DNA of 63,417 nucleotides, filler included, from a bacterium (GTDB lineage Bacteria > JADJOY01): NCBI GenBank assembly GCA_046331705.1. It is 9 parts of 9 records of this genome, joined end to end, with 100 filler letters (N's around TTAATTAATTAA, not from the genome) between each part and the next. Parts side by side here need not be neighbours in the genome. Positions count along the whole stretch, not along the records: positions 1 to 13,685 come from JAXLQJ010000102.1; 8 more parts are not named here. One strand, written 5' to 3'. Shown piece by piece: positions 1 through 30,440 of this stretch. Under the pieces are notes generated by a model, which was given only the letters and a program-made list of their open reading frames with translations, was not told the origin of the DNA and made no database searches. Both the position numbers and the translations under genes were made by a program. The stretch's first letter is position 1; each line of letters starts with the position of its first letter.

Positions 1-2
1 TC

Positions 3-89
3 CTGTACCGCGTTGAAGCACAGCGGCTGGTCGTATTCGTCGTGCGCGTCGCGCACCGCCGCGAGGTGTACCGGAACCTCCCCGGATGA
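3..89 (+). CDS. RelE/ParE-family toxin, C-terminal fragment (truncated by window start)
   Basis: Frame from nt 3 reads LYRVEAQRLVVFVVRVAHRREVYRNLPG-stop, matching the typical RelE C-terminus (Y.I....L.VLVV.VGHRREVY). Not in the ORF track. Confidence 0.75.
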   Translation: MYRVEAQRLVVFVVRVAHRREVYRNLPG

Positions 90-171
90 GGCGCTGAGGT
101 TGCTCAGCACATCGAGGGAGCGTGACCGCGACGACGGTTCGCCTGCGTCTCGCGGGCTCGGAGAGATCAAA

Positions 172-546
172 GTGTCGGACAACGTGAAGCGCACCGACCC
201 GCTGACCCAGGACCAGGTCGAGGCCATCGCCGAAGGCGTCCGGCGTCTCCTCGGAGACGAGCTGCTCGACAAGGCAGGTCAGCACGGCATCGACCTTCAC
301 GACTCGATCGCGTTCGGGCCGGTCGCCGCGCAGGTCCAGCAGGCTCGTGAGGCCGAGGGCCTCTCGCTCGAGGACCTGGCGCGTGAGCTGCACGTCGCGC
401 AGTACCGCATCCGCGACGTCGAGGGCTCACGCATCAACCAGATCCAGCCTGACGTCCTGCGGCGCGTGATCGAGCGGCTCGGTCTCGGAGGGTGGTATGC
501 AACCTGGGCCGAGCAGAATGCCGAGCTCGCTCGCCGGCTCACGTAG
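172..546 (+). CDS. XRE-family helix-turn-helix protein
   Basis: QQAREAEGLSLEDLARELHVAQYRIRDVEG is an XRE-type HTH. GTG at 172 is preceded by GGAGAG. Confidence 0.65.
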   Translation: MSDNVKRTDPLTQDQVEAIAEGVRRLLGDELLDKAGQHGIDLHDSIAFGPVAAQVQQAREAEGLSLEDLARELHVAQYRIRDVEGSRINQIQPDVLRRVIERLGLGGWYATWAEQNAELARRLT

Positions 547-649
547 ATCCTGAACGAAGCAACGCTCGACGCCCGCGCCGACGACGGGCTGGTCGGCACC
601 GTCACCTCCAGCGCCCGCCACGACGGCGTGTGCGTCAACCGGGGCGAAT

Positions 650-723
650 GAGCCTGGGGCGCCCGCCGTTCGCGATCCCTCGCGGCGTGGCAGCTACGAA
701 GGTGGGCAATCCTTGGCATCCCC
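650..723. repeat. Copy 1 of imperfect direct repeat plus degenerate tRNA-Glu 3' end (att-like scar)
   Basis: 650-701 matches 4078-4129 at 46 of 52 positions. TGGCATCCCC (714-723) lies at the same offset as TGGTGTCCCC (tRNA 3' end, 4142-4151). Confidence 0.75.
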
Positions 724-1049
724 GGTCGCAAAGAAATTCGTACCGCGGCCGAGGTCCCGTTCGAGGTGGCGCTCGTTGAGACCGAGGGCGGCCGATCTAG
801 CGGTCTCGGAAGAGCGGAACCTCCGCCCATCATTCATGTCCAGGTCACAGCTTGTGAGATCGGCGGCGCGACCGGCGCCCCGGGTGAAGGGTGTACGATC
901 GACGCGGCGAGAAGGCAGTCCTCGACGCGGCCGGCGCGGTCACGCTCCCGCTGGTGACCCGCAACGCGTCGGTCGCTATCCACCTCGACGCGGCGTTGGG
1001 TGCGGTCGATAGTTCGATCTCGCTCGAACCCCGCCGGAGGTCCTCGCGT

Positions 1050-1599
1050 GTGTCCAAGCGCCCGACGTGGTCGATGGTGAAAGCGGCGCTCGAAGGCGCC
1101 GATGCACCGCAGTTGCTCGGCCTCGTGCACGAGCTCTACCAACTTGACGCACGGAACCGCGAGTTCCTTCATGCTCGTTTCGTCGATCGCGCTGCGAGTC
1201 TGGACCGGGCTCGGAAGGCCGTGAGCGACGCGCTCTTTCCCGACCCCTTCAGCAAGCGGGGCGTCCGCCTGAGAGAGGGACGGCAGGCAATCCGTGACTA
1301 CGTCGGCGCGACGGGCGACGCCGCGGGTGAGCTCGACCTGATGATCGGCTACATCGAAGCAGGCACGGCGTTCGCGATGGACGTGGGCTACGACGAGGAC
1401 GCGTTCTTTGCCTCACTCGCCGCCGTGCTTTCCGAGATCCGCGCTCGTGTCAGGCAGATGCGGCCCTACGAAGCGAAGCAGCACGTCACGCGCTTCGAGC
1501 AGCTCGCCGACCTCGGACGCGATCTTCGATGGGGATGGGGCGATGCACGCGTGTCAGCCGCGAAGGCGGTGGCGGACCGCAGCCTTGCGGGCGACTTAA
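1050..1599 (+). CDS. Hypothetical helical protein (DUF6155-like); 3' end approximate, frame runs on into IS remnant
   Basis: GTG at 1050 with GGAGG RBS. Protein-like sequence SKRPTWSMVKAAL...LYQLDARNREFLHARF...WGWGD, after which the frame turns into non-protein-like sequence up to the stop at 2423. Confidence 0.5.
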
Positions 1600-1799
1600 C
1601 CGGGTCGCGGCGGCCCGGCGCAAGGCTCGAACCGCGAGCGCCAACTCGTACCTCAAAGGGCGTTCCCTTCGTTCGCAGACTTCGCTCGCTTCGGTGCGGC
1701 GTACGTCGATCCCGGTGCCGACTACTACGAGGCGAGCTACCGGGAGCGGGTCCTCGCCAACCTCCGGAAGCGAGCGCGCTCGCTGGGATTCGACCTCAT

Positions 1800-2680
1800 C
1801 GAAGGAGAGCCCGCTGGAATCGGAGTTTCTTAGGAAGGCGGCAACCTTCTTCGCGAGGGAAAGCCGATGAGGTTTCACTTCATCGCTGCGGAAAAGGATC
1901 ACTTCCCGATACGCATGCTCTGCCGGGTCTTGCAGGTGACCGCCGCCGGCTTCTACGCGTGGCGACGTCGCGGTCCCAGCGAGCGGGCGACGGCGGATGC
2001 CCAGCTCGCCGTCGCGATCACCGCATCGCATCGTGCGAGCCGCTGCACCTACGGCAGCCCACGTGTGCATCGCGACCTGCGCGAGCAGGGACGGCGCCAC
2101 GGACGCAAGCGCGTCGCGCGCATCATGCGCGAGCGACAGCTCGTCGCTCGGCAGAAGCGCCGCTTCCGGCGGACGACCGACTCGCGGTACGCGTTCCCGA
2201 TCGCACCAAACTGGCTGAAGCGGCGGTTTGCACCGGCGAAACCGAATCAAGTCTGGGCGGCGGACGTCACGTACCTCGCGACGCTGCGGGCCGAGCTCGT
2301 CGACCACGAGCACTACGCGACACGGGAGGCCGCGATCGCGTCGATCGGGGGTTACATCGACGGCTTCTACAACGTTTGCCGCCGGCATTCGTTCCTCGGC
2401 TACGTGAGTCCGCTGGAGTTTGAAGTGCGGGCTCGTCGCTGGCGCGGCCCCTTCTCGACCCGCGATCCTCGACGATCTCCAGGCAACGCGGGGAAACCGA
2501 CCTCGCCAAATGGCTCCAGAGCGCTTCCGCGGAGAGGGGCCGCTACCTCGGTATCCCCCCGCAACGAGCGTGTGAAGCGGTCGCGGCCGCAGGGGAGTCG
2601 CGATCATCCGGGCGATCCACCGGAGGCGAACCCGAACTTTCACGCATAATCATGGTGTCAACGAAATCGGGACAAGATCA
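1800..2680 (+). mobile_element. Decayed IS3-family element: orfA tail plus internally deleted orfB
   Basis: OrfA tail EFLRKAATFFARESR overlaps (ATGA, 1867-1870) orfB MRFHFIAAEKDHFPIRMLCRVLQV...YGSPRV...PNQVWAADVTYL. OrfB then jumps straight to ATLRAELV...FYN..RRHS.LGYVSP, so the DDE core is missing. IS3-like right end GTGTCAACGAAATCGGGACAAGATCA at 2655-2680. Confidence 0.85.
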
Positions 2681-2932
2681 GAGCGTCTTGGCGCTCGTGC
2701 AAGAGCCCGTACGAGCAATGATGGGCTCGCGACTCGACGCAAGCCGCCGCCTCGATCGTCAGCGCGCTCTTGCAGCCTTAGCCTGGTCGACGAGCGCGCC
2801 GGTGCCGAGCTCGCGCAGGTGTTCGAGAGCGCCCACGGCGGTGCGCCGCACCGGCGGGTTGGGGTCGTCGAGCGCCTGGACGAGTACGGGGATCGCACCA
2901 TCGCCGGCACGTGTCACGTGGCGTCCGACCAG

Positions 2933-3088
2933 CTAGGGCCGCCGAGGTCGCTGGGTCGCCACTCGAACCTCTCGCTCGTCGGCGCTCAGCCGGGCTGCGT
3001 CCTTTGCCGACCACCGGATCTCACCGCCCGTCTTGTGGGGCTTGCAGAGTGGGCAGGACCGCCGCTTTCTCTTGAGTCGCTTTCTCAT
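2933..3088 (-). CDS. Small basic CxxC protein (51 aa)
   Basis: ATG at 3088 preceded by AGGAGACAGGAG; MRKRLKRKRRSCPLCKPHKTGG... Confidence 0.45.
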   Translation of the reverse strand: MRKRLKRKRRSCPLCKPHKTGGEIRWSAKDAARLSADEREVRVATQRPRRP

Positions 3089-3172
3089 CTCCTGTCTCCT
3101 GTAACTGCGCCAACCTGCGGAATCTCGCCCCAGACGGACTGCCGGCGAAGATCGCCGAAGTAGGTCCATGCG

Positions 3173-3490
3173 TCAGACCTCGAGCACCACTCGCTCCCCA
3201 TCGTCGAAGACGGCCGCGAGCTCGAGGTGACCTCCGAGCGCCTCGATGTACTCGCGCAGCGTCGAGAGCTGCGGGTCCGCGCTGCGCTCGGCGCGGGAGA
3301 CGCTGGTCTGCTCGACGCCGAGCGCTTCGGCGAGCTGCACCTGTGTGCGGCCGCGCTGCTTCCGCAGCTCGGCGAGCTCGAAGCGCGCATGCTCACGGAG
3401 CGCCGCCTTGCGAATGCGCTCGACGTTGGCCCGGCGCTTCGGATCGGCGAGCACCGGGCCGCTCAGGTCCTTGAAGTTCCGTGCCTTCAT
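3173..3490 (-). CDS. HigA-like XRE antitoxin
   Basis: LAELRKQRGRTQVQLAEALGVEQTSVSRAE...LSTLREYIEALGGHLELAAVF. ATGA overlap with the upstream toxin. Confidence 0.85.
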   Translation of the reverse strand: MKARNFKDLSGPVLADPKRRANVERIRKAALREHARFELAELRKQRGRTQVQLAEALGVEQTSVSRAERSADPQLSTLREYIEALGGHLELAAVFDDGERVVLEV

Positions 3491-3849
3491 GGGATCGAAC
3501 CCTCCTCGCGCAGCTCGGCGAGATACTGCGCGTAGATCGCTTCCGCGCGCGGGATCGCGTCGCGGTACCACTCGTTCCACTGGCCCGACTTGTTGCCCCC
3601 GATGAGGAGCACCGCCTGCCGGATCGGATCGAAGATGAAGAGCACGCGCAGGGCCCCGCCTTCGCTCGCGCGCAGTTCTTTCAGGTTCGGCAGGTTCGAG
3701 CCGATGATCGTGTCCACGGACGGCCGCCCCAGGTTCGGGCCGTGCTCTTCGAGGAGCTGCACGCGGCCCACGAGCGCGTCTTGCTGGTCGGCCGTGAGGG
3801 CGTCCCACCACTCCGCGAATTCGTCGGTGAACAGAACCTCCCAGGGCAT
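3487..3849 (-). CDS. HigB/Gp49-like RelE-superfamily toxin
   Basis: MPWEVLFTDEFAEWW...LLEEHGPNLGRPSVDTIIGS.LPNLKELR...RVLFIFDPIRQAVLLIGGNKSG. Toxin-first order as in higBA. Confidence 0.88.
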   Translation of the reverse strand: MPWEVLFTDEFAEWWDALTADQQDALVGRVQLLEEHGPNLGRPSVDTIIGSNLPNLKELRASEGGALRVLFIFDPIRQAVLLIGGNKSGQWNEWYRDAIPRAEAIYAQYLAELREEGSIP

Positions 3850-4077
3850 GACCGTAGAATGCGCTACAGCGCATACGCAGTCAAGCGCATGTGGGTCGGT
3901 CGACTGAGCGCCCGTACAACATCCTTGACGGTGGTCCGCCAGGCTGCCGATCCCGACTTCGCTGAGGGAAGGCTAGCGACGTCAGGAAGGCGTAGGAGGG
4001 GAATCACGTGAAGCGTCGCAAGCCCGCTCGACGGGTGGATCGACCATCGCGGAGCTCCTGCGCGACGCCGCGCGAGA

Positions 4078-4129
4078 GAGCCTGGGGCTCCCGCCGTTCA
4101 CGATCCCTCGTCGCGTGGCAGGCACGAAG
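4078..4129. repeat. Copy 2 of imperfect direct repeat, just downstream of tRNA-Glu
   Basis: Matches 650-701 at 46 of 52 positions. Confidence 0.75.
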
Positions 4130-4141
4130 CCGAACTATTCC

Positions 4142-4219
4142 TGGTGTCCCCAGGAGGATTTGAACCTCCGTCTCAGGACTGAGGATCCTGCGTCCTGGGC
4201 CGGGCTAGACGATGGGGAC
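4142..4219 (-). tRNA. tRNA-Glu (CTC)
   Basis: Reverse complement folds as a cloverleaf: acceptor GTCCCCA/TGGGGAC, anticodon stem CAGGA/TCCTG with loop TC-CTC-AG, T-loop GGTTCAAATCC, encoded CCA. Confidence 0.9.
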
Positions 4220-4505
4220 GGATGCGTGACGCGCGACTCGTGCGCGGGGCAAGGCTGGGAGAGGCGGGCTTGGGTGTCAACCCAGCGGACACGGCGGGAC
4301 GCCGGCGGCAGACTCAGCGGACGTCGGACCGATGTCGAGGCTCCTCACCACCGCACGCGTGCCGCAGGCGTCTGGTCCGACTCCGGCGTCCGGCGAGGGC
4401 GTGCGTCCCGGGATTGCCCGCCTTCGGTAAGGTCCCCGCGCTCGAATTCGCGACGCGGCTTTCCGGCGGGACTTTCCGCTGCGGCGCGGCGCGCGCTACG
4501 ACTCG

Positions 4506-5315
4506 ATGAGCGATCTCGGAGGCATTCTCGCAGGCGTTCTCGGAGGACTCTGCGTGGAAGCGTTGCGTTCTCGGCGCTGGCGATGGCTGGTGGGCCCGGC
4601 CATGGCTTTGGGCCTGGTGCTGACGGTGCTCGGGTGTGGTGAGTCGTCGCACGGCGGCGGTTCTTCCCGTAGCACGACCGCCCGCGGCGTCGCGTTCAAT
4701 TTCGGGCCGCAGGGCGGCGCGGTCGCCGACGGCGAGGTGTCGATCCTCGAGATGCCGGATCGGGTGACGCGCACCGATGAGGGCGGTGAGTTCGCGTTCG
4801 ACGATCTTCCGGTGGGTTCCCAGGCGTCGTTCGTGCTGCGTGCGCACGGTCGCCCGGAGATTCAGACGGCGACGTTTCTGCTCGGCGAGCCGCCGCTCGA
4901 GGGCGTCTCGTTCCAGTCGCCGGACGACACGATGGTGGCGCTCTTGGCGCTGCTGGTCGGCGCGGCACCGCGAGCGGATCGCTGCCAGCTCGCGGCGACC
5001 GTGACTCGCGCGAATCCCGAGCTGGTGGCGGGGAAGACGCACGGTGAGCCCGGCGCCACGGTGACCATCGATCCAACTCCCGCGGAGGCGGATGGTCCGA
5101 TCTACTTCAACCTGATCACCTGGAACGCGATCTGGCCGGATCGGCGCCTCTCTGCCACCACGGACGACGGTGGCGTGCTCTACGTGAACGTAACGCCGGG
5201 GACGTATCGGTTGCGCGCGCACAAGGCGGGCGTGATGTTCCGCGACGTCGCGGTCACGTGTCGCGCCGGGATCGTCGCGAACGCCGCGCCGCCATGGGGG
5301 CTTCAGGCGGAGTGA
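4506..5315 (+). CDS. Putative lipoprotein with carboxypeptidase-regulatory-like (beta-sandwich) domains; true start may be downstream
   Basis: Lipobox-like VLTVLGC; motifs TRTDEGGEFAFDDLPVG and GVLYVNVTPGTYRLRA. Confidence 0.6.
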   Translation: MSDLGGILAGVLGGLCVEALRSRRWRWLVGPAMALGLVLTVLGCGESSHGGGSSRSTTARGVAFNFGPQGGAVADGEVSILEMPDRVTRTDEGGEFAFDDLPVGSQASFVLRAHGRPEIQTATFLLGEPPLEGVSFQSPDDTMVALLALLVGAAPRADRCQLAATVTRANPELVAGKTHGEPGATVTIDPTPAEADGPIYFNLITWNAIWPDRRLSATTDDGGVLYVNVTPGTYRLRAHKAGVMFRDVAVTCRAGIVANAAPPWGLQAE

Positions 5316-5603
5316 GCCGGAAATCGCGTCGTCGGCGCGGCGTCGTGGACGTCCGAAGCGTGCCCTCGCTGCGCCGGGATCGACAGATCGCCGCGCGTTG
5401 CGAACGGATCCCCGCCCGTTGCGTGCGGTGCCTTCCCAGCAGCCCCTCCGCTGGCGGCGCCGCACGGCGCCGCTGGGCTGGTACGCGAGGGGGCGGATCG
5501 GCCAGGCGAGCGAGTGCGTGCCAAGCGCTTGTTGGCCGTTGGCTCACGCCGCCGCGGGGATCGCCGCGGCACGCGACGTGATGGCCGGCAGCGCCGCCGT
5601 GCG

Positions 5604-5930
5604 CTACGGCTCGAACGAGCAGACGTACTCGGCGATGCCGGACGCGACCGTGATGTCGAAACCCGAACGCGCCGGCACGCGGAAGCTGGTGCCCGCGCCG
5701 TGGTCGCGCCATTCGCTGGTGCCGTCGAGGCGAACGCGGCAATGCCCGGCGACGATCTCCATCACTTCGGCGGCGTCGGTGCCGAAGTGGAACTCGCCCG
5801 GGTAGATGAGCCCGAGCGTCTTCCGGCTGCCGTCGGCGAAACGGATGGTGTGGCTCACGACCTTGCCGTCGAAATAGACGTTGGCTTTCGCGACGGCGGT
5901 GACGTTCGAGAATTCGCGGGTGTCGTTCAT
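5604..5930 (-). CDS. ppnP: Pyrimidine/purine nucleoside phosphorylase (YaiE/DUF1255)
   Basis: KANVYFDGKVVSHTI.FADGSRKTLGLIYPGEFHFGT.AAEVMEIVAG...YVCSF. Confidence 0.9.
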   Translation of the reverse strand: MNDTREFSNVTAVAKANVYFDGKVVSHTIRFADGSRKTLGLIYPGEFHFGTDAAEVMEIVAGHCRVRLDGTSEWRDHGAGTSFRVPARSGFDITVASGIAEYVCSFEP

Positions 5931-6123
5931 GGCGGCCGAGTTTGGCACGGACGAAGGGGCGACGTGCTCGGGAGCGATTCGCCGCGGTGCGCGGCGCGTC
6001 GGGCCGGATTTCGCGAAGCGCTCGCCGTGGCGTGCGCGCGAGCGGTCGAGCTGATCTCGAGTTGCGGGGTGAGTTGAGGGTTGCGGCGGATGACGCGCGC
6101 ATCTAGCATGGCGCGCGCCGATC

Positions 6124-7107
6124 GTGACCCCCGCCATGCCTCGTCGCGGAGCATCTTCCCGTCGCCGTTGCCGCTCGCCGCACCTGGCGGAGCTCGCGCG
6201 GCTCGTGCTCCTGGTGTTGCTCGTCGGCGGAGCCGCGTGCGGCGGCGACGCGGCGCACGATCCCGCGCTGCGCGAGGGTTTCACGGCGACGCGCTACCCG
6301 ATCGTCCTCACGCCGGGCTTTCTGGGCTTCGACTCGATCCTCGACGCGATCGACTATTGGAACGGGATTCCCGAGGCGCTCGCCGCCGACGGCGCCGACG
6401 TCTTCGTCACGCGCGTGAGCCAGGTCAACTCGAGCGAGGTGCGCGGCGAGCAGCTGATCCGCGACATCGAGGAGGTGCTGGCGGTCACCGGCGCCGAGCG
6501 CGTGAATCTGATCGGCCACAGTCAGGGAACCCTCGACGCGCGCTACGTGCTGGGCGTCCGGCCGGACCTGCTCGCCTCCGTGACCTCGGTTGCGGGGCCG
6601 CACCGGGTGGAGGCGTTCGATGCGATCGAACCGAATGCCCTCACCAACCTGGGCTTCGCGCTCCTCGGAACCCTCGGTGACCTGATCGGGCTGCTGTCGC
6701 CGGGCGACGACCCCAACGATCCCGCGGCGGCCGCTTTCCTCATCGGCGGCGGGCTGAGCGATTTCAACGCCCGCTTTCCGGCGGGCTTGCCTTCCGACGC
6801 CTGCGGCGAAGGCCCAGCGAGGTACCGCGGAATCCCGCTCTACTCGTGGTCCGGCGTTGGTCAAGGCACGGTGGCGGGCGATCCCCTCGACTGGCTCTTC
6901 ATCGCCACGGGACCGTTCTTCGACGAGCCCAACGACGGGCTGGTGCCGCGGTGCTCGTCGCATTTCGGGCGAGTGATCCGCGACGACTACCTGCACAACC
7001 ACCTCGACGAGATCAACTGGACCTTCGGTCTGGTTCCGGAATACGAGACCCACCCGGTCGAGGTGTTTCGAAATCACGCGAATCGGCTGCGCAATCAGGG
7101 GCTCTAG
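6124..7107 (+). CDS. Triacylglycerol lipase, family I (possibly lipoprotein)
   Basis: TRYPIVL.PGFLGF, nucleophile GHSQG, NDGLVPRCSSHFG, NHLDEIN; followed by a foldase gene. Confidence 0.92.
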   Translation: MTPAMPRRGASSRRRCRSPHLAELARLVLLVLLVGGAACGGDAAHDPALREGFTATRYPIVLTPGFLGFDSILDAIDYWNGIPEALAADGADVFVTRVSQVNSSEVRGEQLIRDIEEVLAVTGAERVNLIGHSQGTLDARYVLGVRPDLLASVTSVAGPHRVEAFDAIEPNALTNLGFALLGTLGDLIGLLSPGDDPNDPAAAAFLIGGGLSDFNARFPAGLPSDACGEGPARYRGIPLYSWSGVGQGTVAGDPLDWLFIATGPFFDEPNDGLVPRCSSHFGRVIRDDYLHNHLDEINWTFGLVPEYETHPVEVFRNHANRLRNQGL

Positions 7108-8253
7108 ATGCCCGGAGCCGGGCTCGACCGGCGCGCAGCCGCCGGCGGAGGCGCGGCGGATCGTGCCGCGGCTCGAGCGGTAGTCGCGCGCGGTCTGGTG
7201 CTGGTTTCGTTCGCGATGGGGGCGGTGGGCTACGTCCTGGCGGTGCGGGCTCGCCACGGCGCCGCGATCGCTCCCCGCGACCCGCCGCGCGTGACTCGCC
7301 CCGCGCCGGTCACCGAGTCGCGTCGGCCGATCGGTGACGCACCGCCGATCTCCACCGCGCCCCCGCCCGCCCCAGCGCCGGGCGACTCGCTCGCCAACGC
7401 CGCTTCGCGAGCGCTCGAAGGCACCAGCGTCGACGGCGAGTTGGTGGTCGGGCTCGACGGACATTTTCGTCCCACCGCCGCGGCGATCCGCTTGTTTCGC
7501 CATTTCATGACGGCCAACGGCGAATGGAGCCGTGATCAGGTCCGCCGCCGCATCGAGAGTGAGATCGACGCAAGGCTGGCTCCGCCCGCGTCCGCCGAGG
7601 CGCGCGCGTTCCTGGATCAGTACGTCCGTTATCTGGATGCGAGCCGGAGTCTCGATCCCGCCGGGCTCGACGCCCGCGACCTCGCGGGGCGGCTTTCCCA
7701 GGTTCGCGACCTGCAGCGATCCATCTTCGGCGCCGCGCTCGCCGAAGCGCTCTTCGGCTCCGAGAACGCTCTCGCGGAGGCGGCGCTCGATCGGCTGATG
7801 GCACGCCTCCACGCGACCTCGACCGCCGAGACTCCCGCGCCGCGCGATGGAGAGAGCGAGCGTGACGGCGGTGCCGAAGACCGCCTCCCCCCCGAGGTGC
7901 GCGCGATCCGCGAGCGTGCCGCCGCGCCCATCGAGAGCGCTCGGCAGGTCGAGTCGCTCCGTCGAGGCGGCGCCGATCCGGAAGAGGTGCGTGCCGAGCG
8001 GGTGGCGCGCTTCGGCGCGGACGCCGCCGCGCGACTCGAAGACCTCGACCGCCAGCGAGCGCAGTGGGAAGCGCGCCTCGCCGCCTACCGGGTGGCGCGC
8101 GACGCCGTGTTGCGCAACCCCGCGCTCGACACGGCGCAGCGCACCGCGGCCCTGGAGCGAGTGCGCGAAGAGCGATTTTCGGGCGACGAGATCCGCCACG
8201 TCGCCGAGCTCGACCGGCTCGACGCGAGTGCGGCAGCGATGAACGCACACTGA
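7108..8253 (+). CDS. Lipase-specific foldase (Lif/LipB chaperone)
   Basis: N-terminal TM anchor, SRALEGTSVDGEL, RLFRHFMTANGE (R..FDYFL-type motif), RFGADAAARLEDLDRQRAQWEARLAAY; directly after the lipase. Confidence 0.9.
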   Translation: MPGAGLDRRAAAGGGAADRAAARAVVARGLVLVSFAMGAVGYVLAVRARHGAAIAPRDPPRVTRPAPVTESRRPIGDAPPISTAPPPAPAPGDSLANAASRALEGTSVDGELVVGLDGHFRPTAAAIRLFRHFMTANGEWSRDQVRRRIESEIDARLAPPASAEARAFLDQYVRYLDASRSLDPAGLDARDLAGRLSQVRDLQRSIFGAALAEALFGSENALAEAALDRLMARLHATSTAETPAPRDGESERDGGAEDRLPPEVRAIRERAAAPIESARQVESLRRGGADPEEVRAERVARFGADAAARLEDLDRQRAQWEARLAAYRVARDAVLRNPALDTAQRTAALERVREERFSGDEIRHVAELDRLDASAAAMNAH

Positions 8254-8339
8254 GCGATCGCGCCTCGGGCCCCGAGCAGCGTCCGCGCAGCCGCGCCACC
8301 CTGGGACCACCGGAATCCCGGGTGATCTCGGCCGACTCC

Positions 8340-8415
<76 letters not shown>

Positions 8416-8708
8416 GTAGCTGCCACCTACTTTGATCGATGGCGTCTTGCTCGTGGAGTCAGCGGCGTGCGCTCGCGACGGCGACGTTGTCGCTCGACCG
8501 TTCGCTCCGGCACCGCGCCGACTGCCCGATCATCCCCTGTGTTGTAGCGCCCAACGGCAGCGATTGTCTTGTCCTCGGCCGCCCGCCCCGTGGGCCGAGA
8601 GCCGCGGGCCTCGAAGCCGCTCGTGAGCGCCGCCGCACCGAGGGTCGCCGCCACTCATCCGGGAGCCCGGACCTCAAGCCCGTGGGCGAGCCAGCCGAAG
8701 AGATGCCC

Positions 8709-9143
8709 ATGAGCCTCATCGGCGGCATCCGGGCCGGTCCGAGTCGGCGTCTGTTCGCGTACTTTCTTCCGCTCGATCTCGTCTTCAAGGTACTCACGTT
8801 CGTTCCGTTCGTTGCCGGGCTCCGGATCGCAGCCGCCGGGGAGCGCGCGTCGGTTTACGCCTTTCTGGCCATCCTGGCGGGCGTCGGGCTCGCGGTTTGG
8901 ATGGCGTGGGCCGTTCGGTATCTCCGTCCCGTCGACCGCTGGGAAAGGCAGCACCTGGAGGATGCGTCGTCGGCCGAGGCGCTCGCGCGGGCCGCGAAAG
9001 CCATCGCCTGGGCGCCTTCGAATATTGCTGATGCTCTTGTCAGAAGTTCGCCGCGAGCGTTCGTTTCGAGGACGGCTCGTTCGCCGATTGAACGGAGAAT
9101 CCTGGCGCGCATGGTTCATGCACGCGCCTCGGCCGCGGTGTGA
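8709..9143 (+). pseudogene. Two-TM membrane protein fragment, possibly the truncated N-terminus of a sensor
   Basis: Two hydrophobic segments followed by LRPVDRW..; the frame then degenerates. Confidence 0.3.
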
Positions 9144-9250
9144 GCCAGGAGTGGCGCCGACGCGTCGCGCGGCGTCCCGCGCCGTGCGCTCGCAGGCGCG
9201 AGCGGCCAACCGTCGAAAGGCTTCGCGGGCCGCAGGATCCCAGCGCCGTC

Positions 9251-10975
<1,725 letters not shown>

Positions 10976-11109
10976 GGGGCGTGTGGCGCGGGCGTGGGCA
11001 ACGGCCGCGTCCTGTGCGCGTGTCGTCGATGATACCGATTCAATTCGCGCGCCGAAACGGCGCCACGCCATCGTTCGAGCGCGCCGACGCTAGCGGTGCG
11101 CGTATCCGG

Positions 11110-11230
11110 TGAGCTTTCTCAGACCGAGTGCGAGTGCGCTCGGGTATCGGTGCCTCGAGCCGCGTTGAGATACGGCTGTGCTCGCGTGAGGGCGAGCAAC
11201 TCAGCGCTTCGTGCAGGTGACTCAACGCGG
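11110..11230. promoter_or_regulatory. Candidate upstream activator sequences
   Basis: TGAG-N4-CTCA (11110-11121), TGAG-N9-CTCA (11187-11203), and a perfect 10-bp inverted repeat CCGCGTTGAG (11160-11169) / CTCAACGCGG (11221-11230), about 80-200 bp upstream of the -24/-12 element. Confidence 0.4.
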
Positions 11231-11311
11231 ACCGATCGCGGCGAGCGCCGGGCTCGCTCTCGCCTCGCGGAAAACGCCAACGATCTCCGCGATCGTTCGC
11301 GACGTGCCCGG

Positions 11312-11327
11312 CGGCACGTCTCTCGCA
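11312..11327 (+). promoter_or_regulatory. Sigma54 (-24/-12) promoter for the RING-E1-E2 operon
   Basis: cGGCACGtctcTCGCa: GG (11313-14) and GC (11325-26) separated by exactly 10 nt, against consensus TGGCACG-N4-TTGCW. Confidence 0.65.
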
Positions 11328-11541
11328 TTCGCAGTGCAGCGTGCGCGTGATGTGACGCGCGCCGTGCCGCACGCGAGGCCGGTGGTCTCGATCGCCGGTG
11401 CCTCCGTCCTCCGCGTCCCATGGCAGCCGAAGCTGGGCGTGGTGCGCACTGCGCGCGAGGCGTGGTGCGCGCTGGTGGCGATCGCAGTCGTGTTGCATGT
11501 TCAAGCCGATCGTGAATCGAAATGCAGAAGGAGCGAACGGC

Positions 11542-12096
11542 ATGGCTCAGCTCTTACTCAAGCCGTCGAGCCAGGAAGGTGAGTGGACGGTCCGTCCGAT
11601 CGACACGGACGCCGCGCTGGCGCTCGACGAGCGCGGTGCCGCGCGCTCGCTGCGGCGCTGCGACGTGCTCGACGTGTTGCTGCGCGCGCCCGATGGCGCG
11701 GTGCTGCTGGGTGTCGGCGGAGCAGGAGAGCGCTGGCTGCTCGTGGCACGTGCCGGCGTCGATCTTCACGTCAACGACCGGCCAGTCTCGGCGGGTACGC
11801 GCGTGCTGCGCGACAAGGACGAGATCCGCCTGGGCGCCGGCGCGGTGCCGATCTTCTTCTCGACGGAGCGCGTGGCGCGGATCGAGCCGTTCGAGGGCAG
11901 CGGCGTCGCGGCGAGCTGCCCCCGTTGCCGACTGCCGCTCGAGGCCGGCGCGCCGGCGGTGCGCTGCCCGAGTTGCGGCGTCGCGCACCATCAGCGTGAG
12001 GGGCTGCTGTGCTGGACCTACGCCGAGTCCTGCGCCGTGTGCGGTCATCCGACGCCGCTCGAAGCGGATCTTCAGTGGGTCCCGGAGGCGGTGTGA
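11542..12096 (+). CDS. FHA-like domain plus prokaryotic RING finger (candidate E3 ligase)
   Basis: AAGGAG RBS. LHVNDRPVSAGTRVLRDKDEIRLG resembles the FHA C-terminal strands. C-x2-C-x12-C-x2-C-x3-HH-x6-CW-x5-C-x2-C RING-type pattern. Confidence 0.75.
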   Translation: MAQLLLKPSSQEGEWTVRPIDTDAALALDERGAARSLRRCDVLDVLLRAPDGAVLLGVGGAGERWLLVARAGVDLHVNDRPVSAGTRVLRDKDEIRLGAGAVPIFFSTERVARIEPFEGSGVAASCPRCRLPLEAGAPAVRCPSCGVAHHQREGLLCWTYAESCAVCGHPTPLEADLQWVPEAV

Positions 12097-12172
12097 AGCG
12101 GCGCGGCCCGCGCGGAAGCCGCGTGGGCGCGCGTGCGTCGATCGAGCCAACGATGAGGAGCGAGGGAAAGCC

Positions 12173-13309
12173 GTGGTGACCGTGACGTTGATCGGGCTTG
12201 GGGTGGTTGGGTCCCACGCCGTGGGACTGCTCATCCGGATGGGGCTCATCGACCGGCTGATCCTGGTCGACCCCGACGTCTACGACGAGTCCAACCTCAC
12301 GAGCCAGTGCATCGAGCCGCGGGACGTGGGGCGGCCGAAGGTGCTGGCGCAGAAGCGACGGGTGCGCGCGATCGCGCCCGGCATCGACGTCACGGCGATC
12401 CAGAGCCGCCTCGAGGACCTTCCGCCTGGACGACTGCGGGCGGACGTGATCGTTACGTGCCTGGATTCAGCCGCGGCGCGGATCGACGCGAACGAGATCG
12501 CGGGAATGCTGGGCGTGCCGCTCATCGATACCGGTGTGCGCGGCGCGGATCTGCTGGGTCGCGTGGATGTCTACCTGCCCAGCCCGAGATGCGCGTGCTT
12601 CGAGTGCCTGCTCGCGGCCCACGACTACCAGCAGGCCGAGGTCGTTCACTCGTGCGAGGAAGGTCGCGATCCGCGCCGCGCGCGGCCGACACCGGCGCCA
12701 AGCGCGACGTCGGCCGCCCTCGGCTCGTTGGTCGCCTCCGCGACGGTCGTCGTGCTCGAGGAGCTCCTGCGCTCGCGCGATCCGGGCGCGCTCGCCGGCC
12801 GCCGCATTCTGTTCGAGCTCCGAAACCATCGGCACGCCGTCAGCCGGCTACCGTTCAATCCCGCGTGCCGGCGCTCGCCGCACGAGCCGTGGGCGATTCG
12901 ATCGTTCGGCGAGCACGCCTCGCGCCTCACGTTCACCGAGCTTCACGCGCAGGTGGGCGCCGCCACGAGCGACGCCGCCATCCGGATCTTCGGCACGCGC
13001 TTCGTGACCGAGGTCGTGTGCGTGCGCTGTGGGCGAAAGCGCCGAGTGGTGCGCGTCGAGCGCGGCCTCGGTGGCGCGCGGGGTTGGTGCGGTGCATGTC
13101 ATCGCCCGATGGAAGTGACGAGCCTCGGTCTCGTGGAGTGGCTGCCGCTCGCGGCGCTCACGTCGCGTGAGCTGGATCGCGCTCTCGAGAGCTTCGGCCT
13201 CGCGCGCGGCGACGTCGTCACGATTCGCTCACGCGGGACCGAGCGACACGTCGAGCTCAAGTTGCCGCGCGGCGCGGGCGGCGCCGCGCAGGCGAGGGAG
13301 GAGTCATGA
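12173..13309 (+). CDS. ThiF/MoeB-family E1-like activating enzyme with C-terminal Zn ribbon
   Basis: LIGLGVVGS (GxGxxG), VDPDVYDESNLTSQ, GRPKV, CLDS.AAR, CFEC, candidate catalytic HSC, C-terminal CVRC...CGAC. GTG start inferred. Confidence 0.88.
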   Translation: MVTVTLIGLGVVGSHAVGLLIRMGLIDRLILVDPDVYDESNLTSQCIEPRDVGRPKVLAQKRRVRAIAPGIDVTAIQSRLEDLPPGRLRADVIVTCLDSAAARIDANEIAGMLGVPLIDTGVRGADLLGRVDVYLPSPRCACFECLLAAHDYQQAEVVHSCEEGRDPRRARPTPAPSATSAALGSLVASATVVVLEELLRSRDPGALAGRRILFELRNHRHAVSRLPFNPACRRSPHEPWAIRSFGEHASRLTFTELHAQVGAATSDAAIRIFGTRFVTEVVCVRCGRKRRVVRVERGLGGARGWCGACHRPMEVTSLGLVEWLPLAALTSRELDRALESFGLARGDVVTIRSRGTERHVELKLPRGAGGAAQAREES

Positions 13310-13685
13310 ACGATCCGCAGTTGCAGGGCTTCCTGCGCGAGCAGCAAAAGGCCGCGCACGCGCTCAACGCCGCCAGCGATGTGGTGACGCTGGTTCCGTT
13401 GCCGCGCGGCTTCCACGCGCTCGACACGCTGGGCGGGCTGCTTCAGCTCCTCGGTGCCCCGGTGGCGCTCGACGCGGAGCCGGGGCTCGGTCCGGAGACC
13501 GAAGAGCCCCCGACCCACTACCTGGCCCGGTTCTCGTGCGGAGGGTTGGTCCGGAACCCGGACGGGAGCGTGCGCACGGCCAGCGACTGGCTCGTGGGGA
13601 TTCGCTTTTCCGACGACTACCTACGCCGCGTACGACCGTTCGAGGTGGTGACGTTCATCGGTCCCGAGAGCGTGTGGCACCCCAA
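13306..13685 (+). CDS. E2 (UBC-like) conjugating enzyme, 5' part; continues at 31991-31751 on the minus strand
   Basis: GGAGGAG RBS, ATGA overlap with E1. Ends ...VGIRFSDDY...GPESVWHP at the contig end; the last 21 nt overlap the contig 3 end. Confidence 0.85.
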
Positions 13686-13785
13686 NNNNNNNNNNNNNNN
13701 NNNNNNNNNNNNNNNNNNNNNNNNNNNNNTTAATTAATTAANNNNNNNNNNNNNNNNNNNNNNNNNNNNNNNNNNNNNNNNNNNN
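13686..13785. other. Artificial contig linker (also 23324-23423, 32013-32112, 38885-38984, 45642-45741, 51190-51289, 54587-54686, 60160-60259)
   Basis: N-run, TTAATTAATTAA (stops in all frames), N-run; 100 nt each. Confidence 0.99.
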
Positions 13786-23423: not shown

Positions 23424-25607
23424 CTCGCGAACGACGTCGCCGCCATGGGGCCGGATGCGCAGCTCCGCCGCGCGCGCCGCCGGCGTTCCGATCGCGATCG
23501 ATCCGTCGCTCGACGCGGACGCAAGCCGCTGACTGCCGTCGGGACACCAGGCCAGGCTGTAGACCACGTCCCGATGCGGGCGCGTCTCCACGTGGGCGCC
23601 GAACCGCGCGCCGCCCGCCTCGCCGCGCTCGACGGCCCAGATGCGCACGGTCCCGTCGCAATAGCCCACGGCGAGCTCGCCCCGATCGGACCACGCGAGC
23701 GATCGCGCGGAGCCCTCGGAGACGCGCGCGCTGTCGAGCGCGATCCCGTCGCGGCTCCAGAGCCGGACCTCGCCGTCCTTCGCGGCCGATGCCAAGAGCG
23801 CACCACGCCGATCCCAGCGCACCAGACGCACCCAGTCGGCGTGGCCTTCGAGCGTGGCGACCGCGCTTCCGGTGGCGTCGTCCCAGAGTCGGACGGTGCC
23901 ATCCGTGGACGAGCTCGCGAGCCTGAGCCCGTCGCACGACCACTCGAGCCAGCTCACCGGCTCCGCGTGACCGGAAAGCTCGCGGATCAGCCGCACGCCG
24001 TCGAGGCGTTCCCGGCCTCGCTGCCGAAGGCGCAGCATGCGCCCGATCGCGTCGTTCGGACCTCCGGCTGGCTCGGGTACCCAGCTCTCGACCGTCGTGA
24101 ACGGGTCCGTGAGATCGAGTCGCTCGAACCCGTCGCCCTGCGATGCGGGCCGCCAGACGGCGCGCCAATCGCAGAGCGCCTTCGGCTCGTGCGCCAGCTT
24201 CCGCACCCACTCGCCGCGCAACCGGGCGCGCCCTTCGGACGGCGGCTCGGTGAGCGCCGGCTCCACGTCCTCGGCGCCGCGCACCCGATGGGCGGCGAGC
24301 CCCACGGTCTCGAGCTGCGCGTGAAGTCCGTTGCGCCCGATCTCGGCGAAACGCCAGTCGATCTCGAAGAGCTCGGCGCGCAGCGCTCGCAGCCGTGCGA
24401 ACGCGTCGAAATCGGGTAACGCCGCATCGGGCGGCGCGAACGACCGGTACGCGCGCCGCGCCTCCCCAGCGTCTCCGATCACCAGGTCGAAAGGACGAAG
24501 CTGCGGGTTGCGGTCGTGGGCTGCTGGCCACTGCCGCCGCAACGCCACGAGCGCGGCGTTGAGCTGCTCGATCTGCTCGCGGGTGAATCCGCGCTGGGCG
24601 GCGTGCTGGGCGAAGAGCCGACGTTTGGCCGTCCAATCGAGCGAGAGCTCGGTCGCGTCGTCGAGAGCGTCGAGCCCGTCGAGAACCGCGCGCCACTCGC
24701 GGCACGCTTCGCGGGCCCAGCTCGGCAGATGCACCGCGCCGTCGCCGAGGGCGCCCTCGACGACCGCGAGGTACGCACGCTGGAGCTCGATGGCGCTCGC
24801 GAGCTCGCCGCCCGCCACTCGGGCGCGCTTCGTGAGGCCCGGATCGCGCGCGAAGCGCTGCATCGCCGCGAGCGGTCGCACGAGCTGCCCGCGCGCACCG
24901 AGCGCTCGGCCCTGCTCCGCGAGCGTGATCACCAGCGCCGTGGTGGCGAGCTTGAGCCAGAGCGCGCGATCGGACGCATTCGACTCGCCGCAGATCAGAT
25001 GGACGCGCTTCTGACCTGGCGGCGCGTGGGGCTCGTCCCGGGTGTGGAAGATCGGTCGCTCGGTCTGACTGTCGCCGCCGATGTCGCGGGTCAGATGATG
25101 GACCCGCGGCGAGAGCGAGAACGCGATCCCCGGCGACGACGCATCGAATCCGCCAGCGCCCGTGTACACGATGCGCGAGACCAGGTGCGGGATCAGCACC
25201 CGCGCCAGGCCCGCGATGTCGCCGCGGAAGAGATAGCTCTCGTGGGTGCCCCACGTGCACCCGGACACGTAGTCCACGTTGGTGCGAAAGAGCTTGCCGT
25301 CGACGGGGCCGCCCTCGCTCCGCAGCAGTCGTGCCAGGATCCGCTCGCCGGCGCGGACGTAGCGCACGGCGTCCGTGGGATCGACGACCTCGGCCGTAGC
25401 CACCTCGGGGTGCCAGCCCGCGTCGACGTAGAAGCAAGAGCCGTTGGTGAGCCAGAGCCGCCGCCCGCTGGCGTCGCGCAGATGAGGGAGCGTGGATTGG
25501 GCGGCGCGGAACAGCTCCTCGACGAGCGCTCCCGAAGGGCGCGTTCCCGAGACGAACGCGAACTCGGTCTCGACGCCGAAGAACGTCCGCGCCGCCGCTG
25601 CTGGCAT
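23424..25607 (-). CDS. PafA-like Pup ligase fused to C-terminal WD40 repeats (3'-truncated by contig end)
   Basis: FFGVETEFA, NGSCFYVDAGWHPEVATAE, TWGTHESYL, RPIFHTRDEPHA, RVHLICGESN, RARLRGEWV..CDW..LTDPF, then at least four GH...LAS.S.DG.VRLW repeats. ATG overlaps the Pup stop (TAATG). Confidence 0.9.
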
Positions 25608-25807
25608 TACTGGCCTCCCTCCTGGCGGCTCGCGGCCAGGAACTGCTCGCTGTTGCCCGAGAGCACGCGGCGCACGATGTCCTGGCCCGCCGCGAGCAGC
25701 CGATCTCCGGCCGCGCGCGCGGCATCGAGCGCACCCGCCCCATCGTCCGCGCCGCTCGGCGGCCCGCCCGTCCCCGAATGCTCCCGTCGTCGTTCGCGTT
25801 CCGACAT
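25607..25807 (-). CDS. Pup-like (prokaryotic ubiquitin-like) modifier, 66 aa, ending GGQ
   Basis: GGAGGTGAGG RBS; low-complexity N-terminus; C-terminus SEQFLAASRQEGGQ resembles Pup AEDFVRAYVQKGGQ; lies between the dop-like and pafA-like genes. Confidence 0.88.
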   Translation of the reverse strand: MSERERRREHSGTGGPPSGADDGAGALDAARAAGDRLLAAGQDIVRRVLSGNSEQFLAASRQEGGQ

Positions 25808-25813
25808 GACACC

Positions 25814-27583
25814 TCACCTCCCATACGTTCGGCTCGTGCCGTGGACCGGCAGGAGCGAGTTTCCCCATCCGCGATCGGGCACGTCCTCGGCGTGAAGCGC
25901 ATCGAGGAGCGCCGACAAGCTCTCGTTGGCCGCGAACGCCGCACCCGTTCGCGCCTCGCCGCGCTGCGCCGGCCGATCGAGCCGGACCACGCGCTCGCGC
26001 GAGCGGCCGTTCGATCCGCCGCCGCGCACGTGGACCCGATCCCAATCGACCTCCGTCACCCGCTCGCCGGCGCGCCGGAGCAACATCGCCCGCGTCCACG
26101 CGCGCGTGTCCGGTGGCGGCTCGCGGACGAAGCGATCGATCTCGTCGTCGCTGACGAGGCGGCGCGACAGCCCGGCGCGATCGAGCGCCCAGAAGATCCC
26201 GCCCTCGGGATCGAGGCTCGCGTAGACGAGATCGAGGTGCTTGATCGCCGGCGAGTCCCAACCGAGCCGAGGCTCGCTGCTCACCACCTCGTCGAGGAGC
26301 GCGCGCTTTTGGACCCAGTCCAGCTCCGAGCGCAGCGCGTCGAAGTCGCGGCGGCCGAGCTTGTCGAGGGTCTCGGACCAGATCTGGACGATCTCGCGGG
26401 CGCCCGGAACGATCTCCTCGATGACGTCGCAGCGCTCCACGAAGCGTCCGACATCCTCCAGGAATTGCAGCTGCAGCTCCACCGCCGTCACCGCGCCGCC
26501 CGACACCAGCCGCGCCCGCACACCGAGATCCGGATCGTGTGACCAGGACCGAAACGCCTCGACCGGATCCTCGAGAATCCGCTCGACCCGCACCGCCTCG
26601 GCTTCGATGAGCGCGGACACGAGCTGCATGAGGCCCACGCGCAACAGCATCGACACGTGGTTGAGCGTGGTGTCGAAGCTGATGACGTGCAGCCGCGCGA
26701 AGCGGTGGTCCTGACCGCGCGAATCGTCGCGCCATCGATCCCGCTCGCCACAGAGTGCTTCGTCGCGCGTGTTGACGATGGGACGGTGGTACGTGGTCTG
26801 TGGGCCGCTCAGCGTCTCGATGAAATCCGCGCGCTGCGAGATCTGGAACGGGACCGCGGGAGCATCGTTCTCGCTGCCGACCTTTCCCTGGCCGGTGAGG
26901 ACGATCGCCGAGGCCTGGAAGGAGGCCAAGAAGAGCGCGTAGTGGAGCTTGCGGTGGAAGAGGTTCTCCCACGCTTGGCGCGACACCAGCACGTTGAGAT
27001 GGCCGCCGTAGCTCTGCCCCTGGCCGTCCGAGTTGTTGGCGAGGACCTGGATGGGCTCGTCGCCTCCACGCTTGGCGTTGGCGTTCTCCTGCGCACGGCG
27101 CGCGATCCGGAACATCGCGTGAAGCGCGGCGACGTGATCACGCGCACAGCGAACCTCCGGGATGCAGAGCTCCAGATGGTCGAGATCGATGTACGCGCAG
27201 CCGCCGTTCGACGCGAGGTACTGGCGTCCGATGTCCTGCGGGTCCTCACGCCCGTATGCGCCGTACGCCGAGCCGTAGCCTGCGCCGTACCCCGAACCGT
27301 ACGTCGACCCGTACCAGCCGCCGTAGCGGCGGTCGCTCGCCGCCGGCCACGACGAGGCGAGCGGCGCCGCGCGTTTGGGAAGCCCCTCGATTTCCGCGAG
27401 CAGCGCCCGCGACGCCTCTCGACCGCTGCCGGCGCCGGTCGTGGAGCTCGCGGACGCACCCTCGGGCGGCGCACCTCCACGTCCGGTGACGAAGTTGCCG
27501 AGCTCCACGTCTGCCCCGGTGATCTTGGGCACGAGGAAACGAACGCGGCTGCTCGGCGCTCGTGCTCGATTCGGCTTGGCCAT
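25814..27583 (-). CDS. Dop-like Pup deamidase/depupylase (PafA/Dop family)
   Basis: KITGADVELG, long loop before NGGCAYIDLDHLE, NNSDGQGQSYGGH, GQGKVG, FQISQRADFIE, RPIVNTRDE, RLHVI, PPPDTRAWTR, VDWD. Confidence 0.88.
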   Translation of the reverse strand: MAKPNRARAPSSRVRFLVPKITGADVELGNFVTGRGGAPPEGASASSTTGAGSGREASRALLAEIEGLPKRAAPLASSWPAASDRRYGGWYGSTYGSGYGAGYGSAYGAYGREDPQDIGRQYLASNGGCAYIDLDHLELCIPEVRCARDHVAALHAMFRIARRAQENANAKRGGDEPIQVLANNSDGQGQSYGGHLNVLVSRQAWENLFHRKLHYALFLASFQASAIVLTGQGKVGSENDAPAVPFQISQRADFIETLSGPQTTYHRPIVNTRDEALCGERDRWRDDSRGQDHRFARLHVISFDTTLNHVSMLLRVGLMQLVSALIEAEAVRVERILEDPVEAFRSWSHDPDLGVRARLVSGGAVTAVELQLQFLEDVGRFVERCDVIEEIVPGAREIVQIWSETLDKLGRRDFDALRSELDWVQKRALLDEVVSSEPRLGWDSPAIKHLDLVYASLDPEGGIFWALDRAGLSRRLVSDDEIDRFVREPPPDTRAWTRAMLLRRAGERVTEVDWDRVHVRGGGSNGRSRERVVRLDRPAQRGEARTGAAFAANESLSALLDALHAEDVPDRGWGNSLLPVHGTSRTYGR

Positions 27584-27606
27584 GGCTCACCTCGCGCGCG
27601 CGGCGC

Positions 27607-29298: not shown

Positions 29299-29359
29299 CG
29301 TTCTCCGTCCTTTCCGCCGCCAGCCGTGCGGCCAACGCATGCGCGCTTCCTTCCCTGCC

Positions 29360-30391: not shown

Positions 30392-30440
30392 GGCACCCGT
30401 CCCGCGCACCGCTCACCCGGCACGAGTGCCGGGTCACGGT

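Follow-up and report, generated by a model that had tools for sequence, protein, structure and literature searches.

An FHA-like/RING protein as a candidate E3-like adaptor at the head of a bacterial operon for ubiquitin-like conjugation

The window analyzed here is a stretch of 63,417 nucleotides composed of nine contigs of one metagenome-assembled genome (MAG; GCA_046331705.1, completeness 95.7%), which are joined by N...TTAATTAATTAA...N spacers (13686..13785 and seven further places). The gene under study (11542..12096) encodes a protein in which, according to a predicted model, an FHA-like domain is followed by a RING finger. In our judgment, this protein is probably the RING-type, E3-like adaptor of a bacterial ubiquitin-like protein (Ubl) conjugation cascade. 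The genes of the operon are arranged in the order FHA-like/RING, E1, E2, unknown, Ubl, JAB, Mpa-like ATPase, Dop-like, Pup-like, and PafA-like, and their positions and strands in the window are as follows.

11542..12096 (+): FHA-like/RING gene, 184 aa, with a predicted FHA-like fold at residues ~1–115 and a predicted C4HC3 RING finger at residues ~120–184
12173..13309 (+): E1-like adenylating enzyme, 378 aa (ThiF, E 1.6e-28)
13306..13685 (+): N-terminal 126 codons of E2, running to ..WHP(N), where contig C102 ends; its ATG overlaps the stop codon of E1 (ATGA)
31751..32011 (−): C-terminal part of E2, ..HPNIAGRKHAIC.., on contig C106 (21-nt in-frame overlap, tblastn)
30801..31754 (−): conserved unknown protein, 317 aa, with no Pfam match, found in 19 of the 21 related loci
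30441..30728 (−): Ubl, YukD-like, 95 aa (YukD, E 0.0021, below the cut-off)
29360..30409 (−): JAB/JAMM peptidase, 349 aa (Prok-JAB, E 8.8e-5)
27607..29340 (−): Mpa/ARC-like AAA+ ATPase, 577 aa, ending in ..FLRAA (AAA and proteasomal OB domains in Pfam)
25814..27583 (−): Dop-like member of the Pup-ligase family, 589 aa (Pup_ligase, E 8.3e-92)
25607..25807 (−): Pup-like peptide, 66 aa, ending in GGQ (translation of the open reading frame), between the Dop-like and PafA-like genes, the place of Pup
23424..25607 (−): PafA-like protein running in frame into WD40 repeats and off the end of C106 (tblastn with Pup-ligase homologues; translation)

The open reading frame (ORF) of the FHA-like/RING gene is intact, with an ATG start, a TGA stop, 184 codons, and AGGAG 9 nt upstream of the ATG at 11542. 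A longer GTG-started ORF from 11398 was rejected as an over-extension, judging from the relatives, which start with MAHLW in alignment with MAQLL of the window protein. An earlier note on this DNA had called the gene at this position, and the start codon, the AGGAG element, and the alignment of the relatives' starts bear it out as a real gene of 184 aa. In a 6859-nt contig of run X3, which represents a second strain, nine differences and no insertions or deletions are found within the gene (11592..11746). Of the nine, eight fall within the variable portion of the FHA-like domain; five affect first or second codon positions. Short contigs from two metatranscriptome runs lie on E1 (12575..12786) and E2 (13328..13615) and none on the FHA-like/RING gene; such libraries can contain DNA.

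The gene is on C102 (window 1..13685), 1.6 kb from the contig end. At its end, C102 shares 21 identical nucleotides with the reverse-complemented end of C106 (window 23424..32012); the frame is kept and continues as HPNIAGRKHAIC.., and both E2 pieces are matched by full-length E2 relatives in tblastn searches. As judged from this 21-nt overlap, C102 and C106 are true neighbors in opposite orientation, and the operon is split across both, with all its genes on one strand once the two are joined. Independent public DNA contigs continue beyond C102 without a break, for ~1.0 kb in X1 and ~3.5 kb in X3.

The C-terminal finger (residues ~120–184) has eight zinc ligands, Cys126, Cys129, Cys142, Cys145, His150, Cys157, Cys164, and Cys167, in the order C4HC3 and with the spacing C-x2-C-x12-C-x2-C-x4-H-x6-C-x6-C-x2-C. 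Conservation was evaluated in a family alignment of 173 sequences, composed of the window protein, the matches of a 31-relative search, and the best 150 of 1641 profile matches. Each of the zinc ligands is 98–100% conserved in this alignment, and Arg128, Val140, Pro143, Trp158, Tyr160, Trp179, and Pro181 are also highly conserved. The window copy is somewhat divergent, with Gln3, Leu5, Asp79, and Ala148 at the positions where the family has His, Trp, Gly, and Trp, respectively. The spacing had been described as RING-type in the earlier note. The eight ligands are indeed present and conserved, but their spacing is only approximately that of a RING, since the ligands follow the order C4HC3 where a classical finger has C3HC4, and six residues, versus two in the classical finger, separate the H..C pair. 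The Prok-RING model, which the same note had proposed as a check, gave a similarly divided result: Pfam Prok-RING_1 (PF14446) matches the protein with an E-value of 2.6e-6, but its score of 27.7 bits is just below the gathering cut-off (29.1). In the six-frame search of the genome, the score is 29.9 bits, and this is the sole Prok-RING_1 match in the genome. Precomputed PF14446 annotation is present on 15 of the 31 relatives, whereas no NCBIfam model matches the FHA-like/RING protein.

The resemblance to PHD fingers should be noted here. The first five ligands of the window finger have exactly the spacing of the PHD pattern (C-x2-C-x12-C-x2-C-x4-H). The finger might accordingly be a PHD-like or another treble-clef reader, which would read a peptide or a modified tail and would not recruit an E2. 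RING and PHD fingers cannot be distinguished by the sequence pattern alone, and the fold was therefore tested. The model of the whole protein predicted by AlphaFold2 (AF2) from 27 sequences has a mean predicted local distance difference test score (pLDDT) of 90.5 and a predicted template modeling score (pTM) of 0.80. The model was compared with 48,161 representatives of the PDB by VIA-align, and 50 rows were listed. The only zinc-finger entries among these rows are the RING-H2 E3s Ark2C (7r70_A) and RNF165 (5d0i_A). Ark2C aligns with residues 110–179 of the model with a Z-score of 6.4 (root mean square deviation [rmsd] 2.5 Å, 61 aligned residues, 25% identity), and RNF165 has a Z-score of 6.2.

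The finger was also modeled alone. The pLDDT is then 70, and this lower confidence suggests that the finger leans on the N-terminal domain in the predicted structure. Twelve of the top 20 VIA-align rows for the isolated finger are RING E3 entries (Ark2C, RNF165, HRD1, ZNRF1, APIP6, RNF12, RNF38, EL5, RNF146, RNF126, RNF13, and AO7), with Z-scores of 3.8–4.8. The RING-like domain of alpha-COP is at rank 1 (Z 4.9), and the PHD entry PHF7 is found with a Z-score of 3.8. Foldseek ranks Ark2C and RNF165 first, with nonsignificant E-values, and gives the PHD finger of TAF3 a probability of 0.15–0.33. A profile of the finger was also searched against PDB chains. RING and PHD matches in this search are all nonsignificant, the PHD fingers of TAF3 and Pygopus (E 0.016–0.06) standing beside the RING-H2 finger of EL5 (E 0.049). 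The only matches at E ≤ 0.001 are to repeated C2H2 fingers over a 26-residue stretch and were taken as spurious. The predicted fold of the finger is that of a RING, firmly so in the whole model and by narrow margins in the isolated finger. The fold searches thus put RING E3s ahead of PHD fingers, and the H-x6-C and C-x6-C spacings do not fit a PHD finger, so that a PHD-like reader is very unlikely in spite of the shared spacing of the first five ligands and the weak profile matches.

The N-terminal part (residues ~1–115) adopts the FHA fold in the model. All the listed top matches found by Foldseek are FHA domains, including GarA (7rj3_B) with an E-value of 2.2e-3 and a probability of 1.00. 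Z-scores of at least 8 are reached by 29 chains in VIA-align, and every one of the 29 rows listed above Z 8 is an FHA domain, the best being 3gqs_B (Z 10.4, rmsd 2.4, 89 of 101 residues aligned); the FHA domain of RNF8 (2pie_A) has a Z-score of 7.4. Residues 1–118 are also nearest to FHA clusters in a language-model atlas (score 0.86), which is to be taken as a lead only.

Pfam FHA (PF00498), which detects 18 other FHA domains of the genome at E ≤ 1e-8, does not match the window protein at E ≤ 1. In the comparison by hhalign with 17 canonical FHA domains of the same genome, the probability is 44% (E 3.7e-5 for a single comparison), and only the C-terminal half is aligned, with VNG...L.D.DEI placed opposite NG...L..GD.I. 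The residues considered for phosphothreonine binding were the Arg of GR, the Ser and His of SxxH, and the Asn of the β6–β7 loop. Nothing is conserved opposite GR or SR.H in the alignment with the 17 FHA domains, and no residue in the β3–4, β4–5, and β6–7 loops of the model, through which FHA domains bind phosphopeptides, exceeds 40% conservation in the family alignment. The conserved positions of the domain are Trp15, Trp65, Asn78, Gly79, Gly85, Leu89, Asp91, Asp93, Glu94, Phe106, Ser107, and Glu109. The conserved Asn78-Gly79 is aligned with the second NG turn, where the window copy has Asn-Asp. The N-terminal ~115 residues are thus, on the predicted model, an FHA β-sandwich but not a canonical FHA domain. 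The earlier note had seen an FHA-like β region without the GR and SxxH motifs, and it was right on both points; the FHA profile search that it proposed as a check gave no match at E ≤ 1. The two domains adjoin directly and appear to be one unit, judging from the pTM of the whole model and the drop in pLDDT of the finger modeled alone.

The family of the FHA-like/RING protein is large but sporadic. In a library clustered at 50% identity, 1641 representatives are found at E ≤ 0.001, 1117 at 1e-10, and 683 at 1e-30. Nearly all of the best 150 of these 1641 matches have 150–250 aa and match the full profile, and the two-domain form is therefore fixed. A search of 8000 candidates for longer, fused forms gave none; this evidence is weak. 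In one locus (L020, 8001..8700), an ORF that looks like a RING-E1 fusion was rejected as an artifact of a masked (X/N) stretch. No relative was found in viral contigs by a pattern scan.

We compared the gene order with that in related loci, using one genome per species, and found 21 loci (22 including the window). These come from Acidobacteriota, Gemmatimonadales, Planctomycetes, an Eisenbacteria MAG, and others. E1 directly follows the RING gene in all 21 related loci, its start often overlapping the stop of the RING gene, and E2 is present in 19. The position at the head of the operon, as given in the earlier note, thus stands, with E1 directly downstream, then E2, and the order kept in the related loci. 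Each of the families Ubl, JAB, AAA ATPase, and Pup-ligase occurs in 15 loci; four of the other six (L007, L016, L018, and L019) stop at a contig end before that point, and the remaining two are Blastocatellia loci (L003 and L005). Among 301 sampled Gemmatimonadota genomes, four carry the FHA-RING gene, and all four have E2 1.1–1.7 kb downstream on the same strand.

Several observations weigh against a role as an E2-docking, E3-like protein. The Pfam score falls just below the curated cut-off. The finger modeled alone has the lower pLDDT described above, and its RING matches, all with Z-scores below 5, are near four rows of PARP-1 fingers (Z 4.0–4.2). The residues at the expected E2 interface should also be noted. 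Classical RING fingers contact E2 through a hydrophobic residue two after Cys1, a Pro after Cys7, and a basic linchpin after Cys8. In an alignment with RNF165 made by eye, these positions are occupied by the invariant Arg128, Ala165, and Gly168/His169, respectively. The hydrophobic residue is thus replaced with Arg and the Pro with Ala, and the basic linchpin is absent, according to this by-eye reading; the partner E2 is itself nonclassical. Two Blastocatellia loci (L003 and L005) have the FHA-RING gene and E1 but no recognizable E2. Downstream of E1 in L005 (8001..16210) come, in this order, a 99-aa ORF and the genes for a DUF4062-NACHT STAND NTPase, an unknown protein of 362 aa, and a WD40 protein; E1 of L003 (2157..4283) has a NUDIX gene after it and then the contig end. 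Moreover, of six Gemmatimonadota genomes with a related E2, two, in which this E2 is more distant, have no FHA-RING match at E ≤ 1e-10. Co-folding of the cognate E2 and the FHA-RING protein of L006, each with its own alignment, gave ipSAE values of 0.02 and 0.00, which are uninformative either way.

A different role would be that of a non-catalytic scaffold or sensor. Such a protein would not dock E2 but would gate the cascade by binding to the Ubl, E1, the Mpa-like ATPase, or a signal of an invader or of stress, or it would itself be the first target of the cascade. The strictest neighbor of the gene is E1 (21/21, often with overlapping stop and start) and not E2 (19/21), as this role would have it, and the two loci with the gene and E1 but no E2 match include the one with the STAND NTPase and WD40. 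The classical E2-contact residues are not retained, as read by eye, and variability within the family is greatest in the loops of the canonical FHA binding face. However, the closest solved folds of the finger are RING-H2 domains that bind E2, and the Pfam family Prok-RING_1 is defined for RINGs. Furthermore, E2 is present wherever the DNA extends far enough, except in the two Blastocatellia loci. Taking both sides together, we consider a scaffold or sensor rather unlikely and favor the E3-like adaptor, the finger of which would dock E2.

The downstream genes support the context of a conjugation cascade. The E1 gene is matched by the PADLOC E1-E2 models over its adenylation part only, and no PADLOC model matches the RING protein, the E2 fragment, or the system as a whole. 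After the contig ends are joined, E2 reads HPN-x8-Cys. In a search of the PDB with a profile of 18 full-length related E2s, 52 of the 53 matches at E ≤ 1 are UBC-type E2s. The best of the matches (E 0.0047) is aligned over HPN...Cys; the query here is the related full-length E2s and not the window fragment. The Ubl family, as represented by the window gene and 13 relatives, has a conserved C terminus, ..LQPN(I/V)DAG, followed by a variable tail of 0–6 residues. This pattern of ..DAG with variable tails fits trimming of the Ubl by JAB, as far as can be read from the sequences. The terminus would be Ala-Gly, not Gly-Gly, and is presumably exposed by the JAB peptidase. The JAB homologue of L017 scores 28 bits, above the cut-off. 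In the window JAB protein, the N-terminal ~190 aa are of unknown kind, and an insert containing cysteine (..GCKDCPPERQRDC..) separates the H-x-H from the Asp of the JAMM motif. For the conserved 317-aa protein, the atlas points to YbjN/CesT-type peptide-binding chaperones with scores of 0.84–0.87, a lead only.

The operon extends beyond the account in the earlier note, with the Mpa-like ATPase and a Dop/Pup/PafA module. The ATPase scores 245.8 bits with TIGR03689, below the cut-off of 504.75. The Dop-like protein scores higher with the Dop model (267 bits) than with the PafA model (212 bits), both below the cut-offs. WD40 repeats are common to the window PafA-like protein and the variant Blastocatellia locus L005.

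From these components, the following scheme can be proposed for the E3-like adaptor. JAB would trim the Ubl precursor to its ..DAG end. E1 would adenylate the Ubl and hand it to the catalytic Cys of the HPN-type E2, and the C4HC3 RING finger would dock the charged E2. The rigidly joined FHA-like sandwich, in which phosphothreonine recognition appears to be lost, would hold a target or a partner via a phospho-independent surface, and the Ubl would be transferred to a lysine of the target. With the Mpa-like unfoldase and the Dop/Pup/PafA module downstream, the tag would probably feed proteins to unfolding or turnover without the 20S proteasome. A three-enzyme cascade with a degenerate FHA domain as the substrate receptor had been proposed in the earlier note. 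The ThiF-type E1, the HPN-type E2, the Ubl, and JAB provide the context for such a cascade. The data show the two predicted folds, the ligand conservation, and the gene linkage, whereas E3 activity, E2 docking, target binding, and the fate of tagged proteins are inferred.

The fate of the tagged proteins should be considered together with the proteasome. A 20S proteasome was not found in this 95.7%-complete genome, in which the sole PF00227 match is HslV (268 bits; G000:C11:167338-167850). The proteasome-docking tail of an ATPase requires a penultimate Tyr, and the Mpa-like ATPase ends in ..FLRAA. Because only HslV was found and the ATPase ends in this way, tagged proteins are probably not delivered to a 20S proteasome. 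The co-occurrence of a Ubl cascade, a Pup module, and an unfoldase without a detected 20S proteasome raises the question of where the tagged proteins go.

A bolder reading would make the protein a tag-directed ligase. The FHA-like domain would then recognize Pup-modified or Mpa-engaged proteins, or invader proteins via its hypervariable loops, and the RING finger would add the ..DAG Ubl to them. We regard this as distinctly unlikely. If true, a single unfoldase in a bacterium lacking a proteasome would be served in succession by two tags of unrelated chemistry. The protein would then be a bacterial equivalent of the SUMO-targeted ubiquitin ligases and, among endogenous RING E3s of bacteria, the first whose substrate logic is defined.

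Two further features lie upstream of the FHA-like/RING gene.

9251..11071 (−): sigma-54-dependent activator, 606 aa, with an unknown N-terminal domain, divergent from the operon (Sigma54_activat, E 3e-38)
11312..11327 (+): candidate sigma-54 −24/−12 promoter element, CGGCACGTCTCTCGCA, with two mismatches to TGGCAC-N5-TTGCA and with GG and GC kept

Homologues of the activator are also upstream in L006, L007, L008, and L013. Elements were scored within 231 nt upstream of the FHA-RING gene, allowing at most two mismatches with GG and GC kept. A −24/−12-like element is found in all five loci with the activator (the window and these four) and in none of the 17 loci without it, and rpoN is present in the genome. 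The operon here is probably switched on by the dedicated sigma-54 activator. The activator gene and the element beside the FHA-RING gene in these five of the 22 loci might also be taken to mean that the protein is itself a transcriptional or signaling regulator, in which the FHA-like domain and the zinc finger act with the neighboring activator. However, the other 17 loci have no activator, yet all keep E1, and no DNA-binding family was matched in Pfam. A regulator is therefore highly improbable, and the E3-like adaptor remains the reading that we favor.

A tRNA-Lys(UUU) gene is located at 8340..8415 (−), 0.8 kb beyond the activator gene, and the GC content is even, about 0.70. The FHA-RING gene was found in none of the five other genomes of this small phylum. 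The cassette may therefore be an island.

To our knowledge, no RING-type E3 of a bacterium's own Ubl cascade has been characterized biochemically, and the bacterial E1/E2 systems studied work without one. The family described here is large and compact (~180 aa), has a fixed architecture, and is always beside E1 and nearly always beside E2. It is therefore a practical entry point to the questions of when E3s arose and what a RING finger does with a prokaryotic HPN-type E2. The FHA-like domain, which keeps the predicted fold but appears to have lost phosphate recognition, is a defined candidate for a substrate-selection module.

The operon shares the E1, E2, Ubl, and JAB chemistry with systems of the BilABCD, Bub, and CBASS-Cap2 types, and the window E1 matches the PADLOC E1-E2 models over its adenylation domain. 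In the window, however, E1 and E2 are separate genes, and we know of no RING component in systems of these types. The Ub/E1/E2/RING/Rpn11 operon of Caldiarchaeum subterraneum is similar in that E1, E2, a small RING protein, and a JAMM peptidase are encoded in one operon. The cascade of this archaeon has reportedly been reconstituted biochemically. Its RING is a stand-alone C3H2C3 RING-H2 finger, with no FHA-like domain and no Pup module in the operon. A 2024 review gives C3H2C3 RING-H2 for the Caldiarchaeum operon and C4HC3 as the prokaryotic RING pattern.

The combination of Ubl, Pup, and unfoldase genes in one operon is little described. In the passages found of Kaur et al. (2020, eLife, PMC7159879), one sentence concerns a Ubl-conjugation system coupled to a Pup-conjugation system, for which Thermofonsia and Planctomycetes are the only groups named, and the coupling is cited there in favor of a connection between tagging with Ubl and degradation. 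The window has the same gene set as described there, with all genes present though split over two overlapping contigs. No FHA-like domain is mentioned in those passages, and the loci found here are from Acidobacteriota, Gemmatimonadales, Planctomycetes, Eisenbacteria, and this small phylum.

Among solved structures, RNF165 and Ark2C have the closest fold to residues 110–179 of the model (Z 6.2–6.4, 55–61 aligned residues, 25–26% identity). They differ from the window finger in being C3H2C3, not C4HC3, and the central helix of the window finger is shorter, ligands 6 and 7 being six residues apart. As judged by eye, the window finger has also not retained the classical E2-contact residues. RNF8 and CHFR have the same order of domains, FHA and then RING, and the similarity to the RNF8 FHA domain is seen in the Z-score given above. 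The FHA domains of RNF8 and CHFR bind phosphothreonine, whereas the FHA-like domain of the window protein is without the phosphothreonine-binding residues and directly adjoins the finger, apparently as one unit. The likeness to RNF8 and CHFR is probably convergent, because no sequence relationship was found between them and the window protein.

The closest relation is to the Prok-RING fingers of Ubl operons, which Burroughs, Iyer and Aravind reportedly defined in 2011 in the neighborhood of genes for E1, E2, Ubl, and JAB. The window C4HC3 finger matches the Prok-RING_1 model and is encoded beside the same four kinds of genes. The difference lies in the N-terminal 115 residues of the window protein, which are without Pfam annotation and have the FHA fold in the model. 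No description of a bacterial FHA-RING protein was found in the full-text literature searched; the defining paper of 2011 is outside that search, so the architecture is not claimed to be unpublished. What appears to be new here, as far as the predicted model can tell, is the combination of a Prok-RING-type finger with a previously unannotated FHA-like head that would be blind to phosphate.

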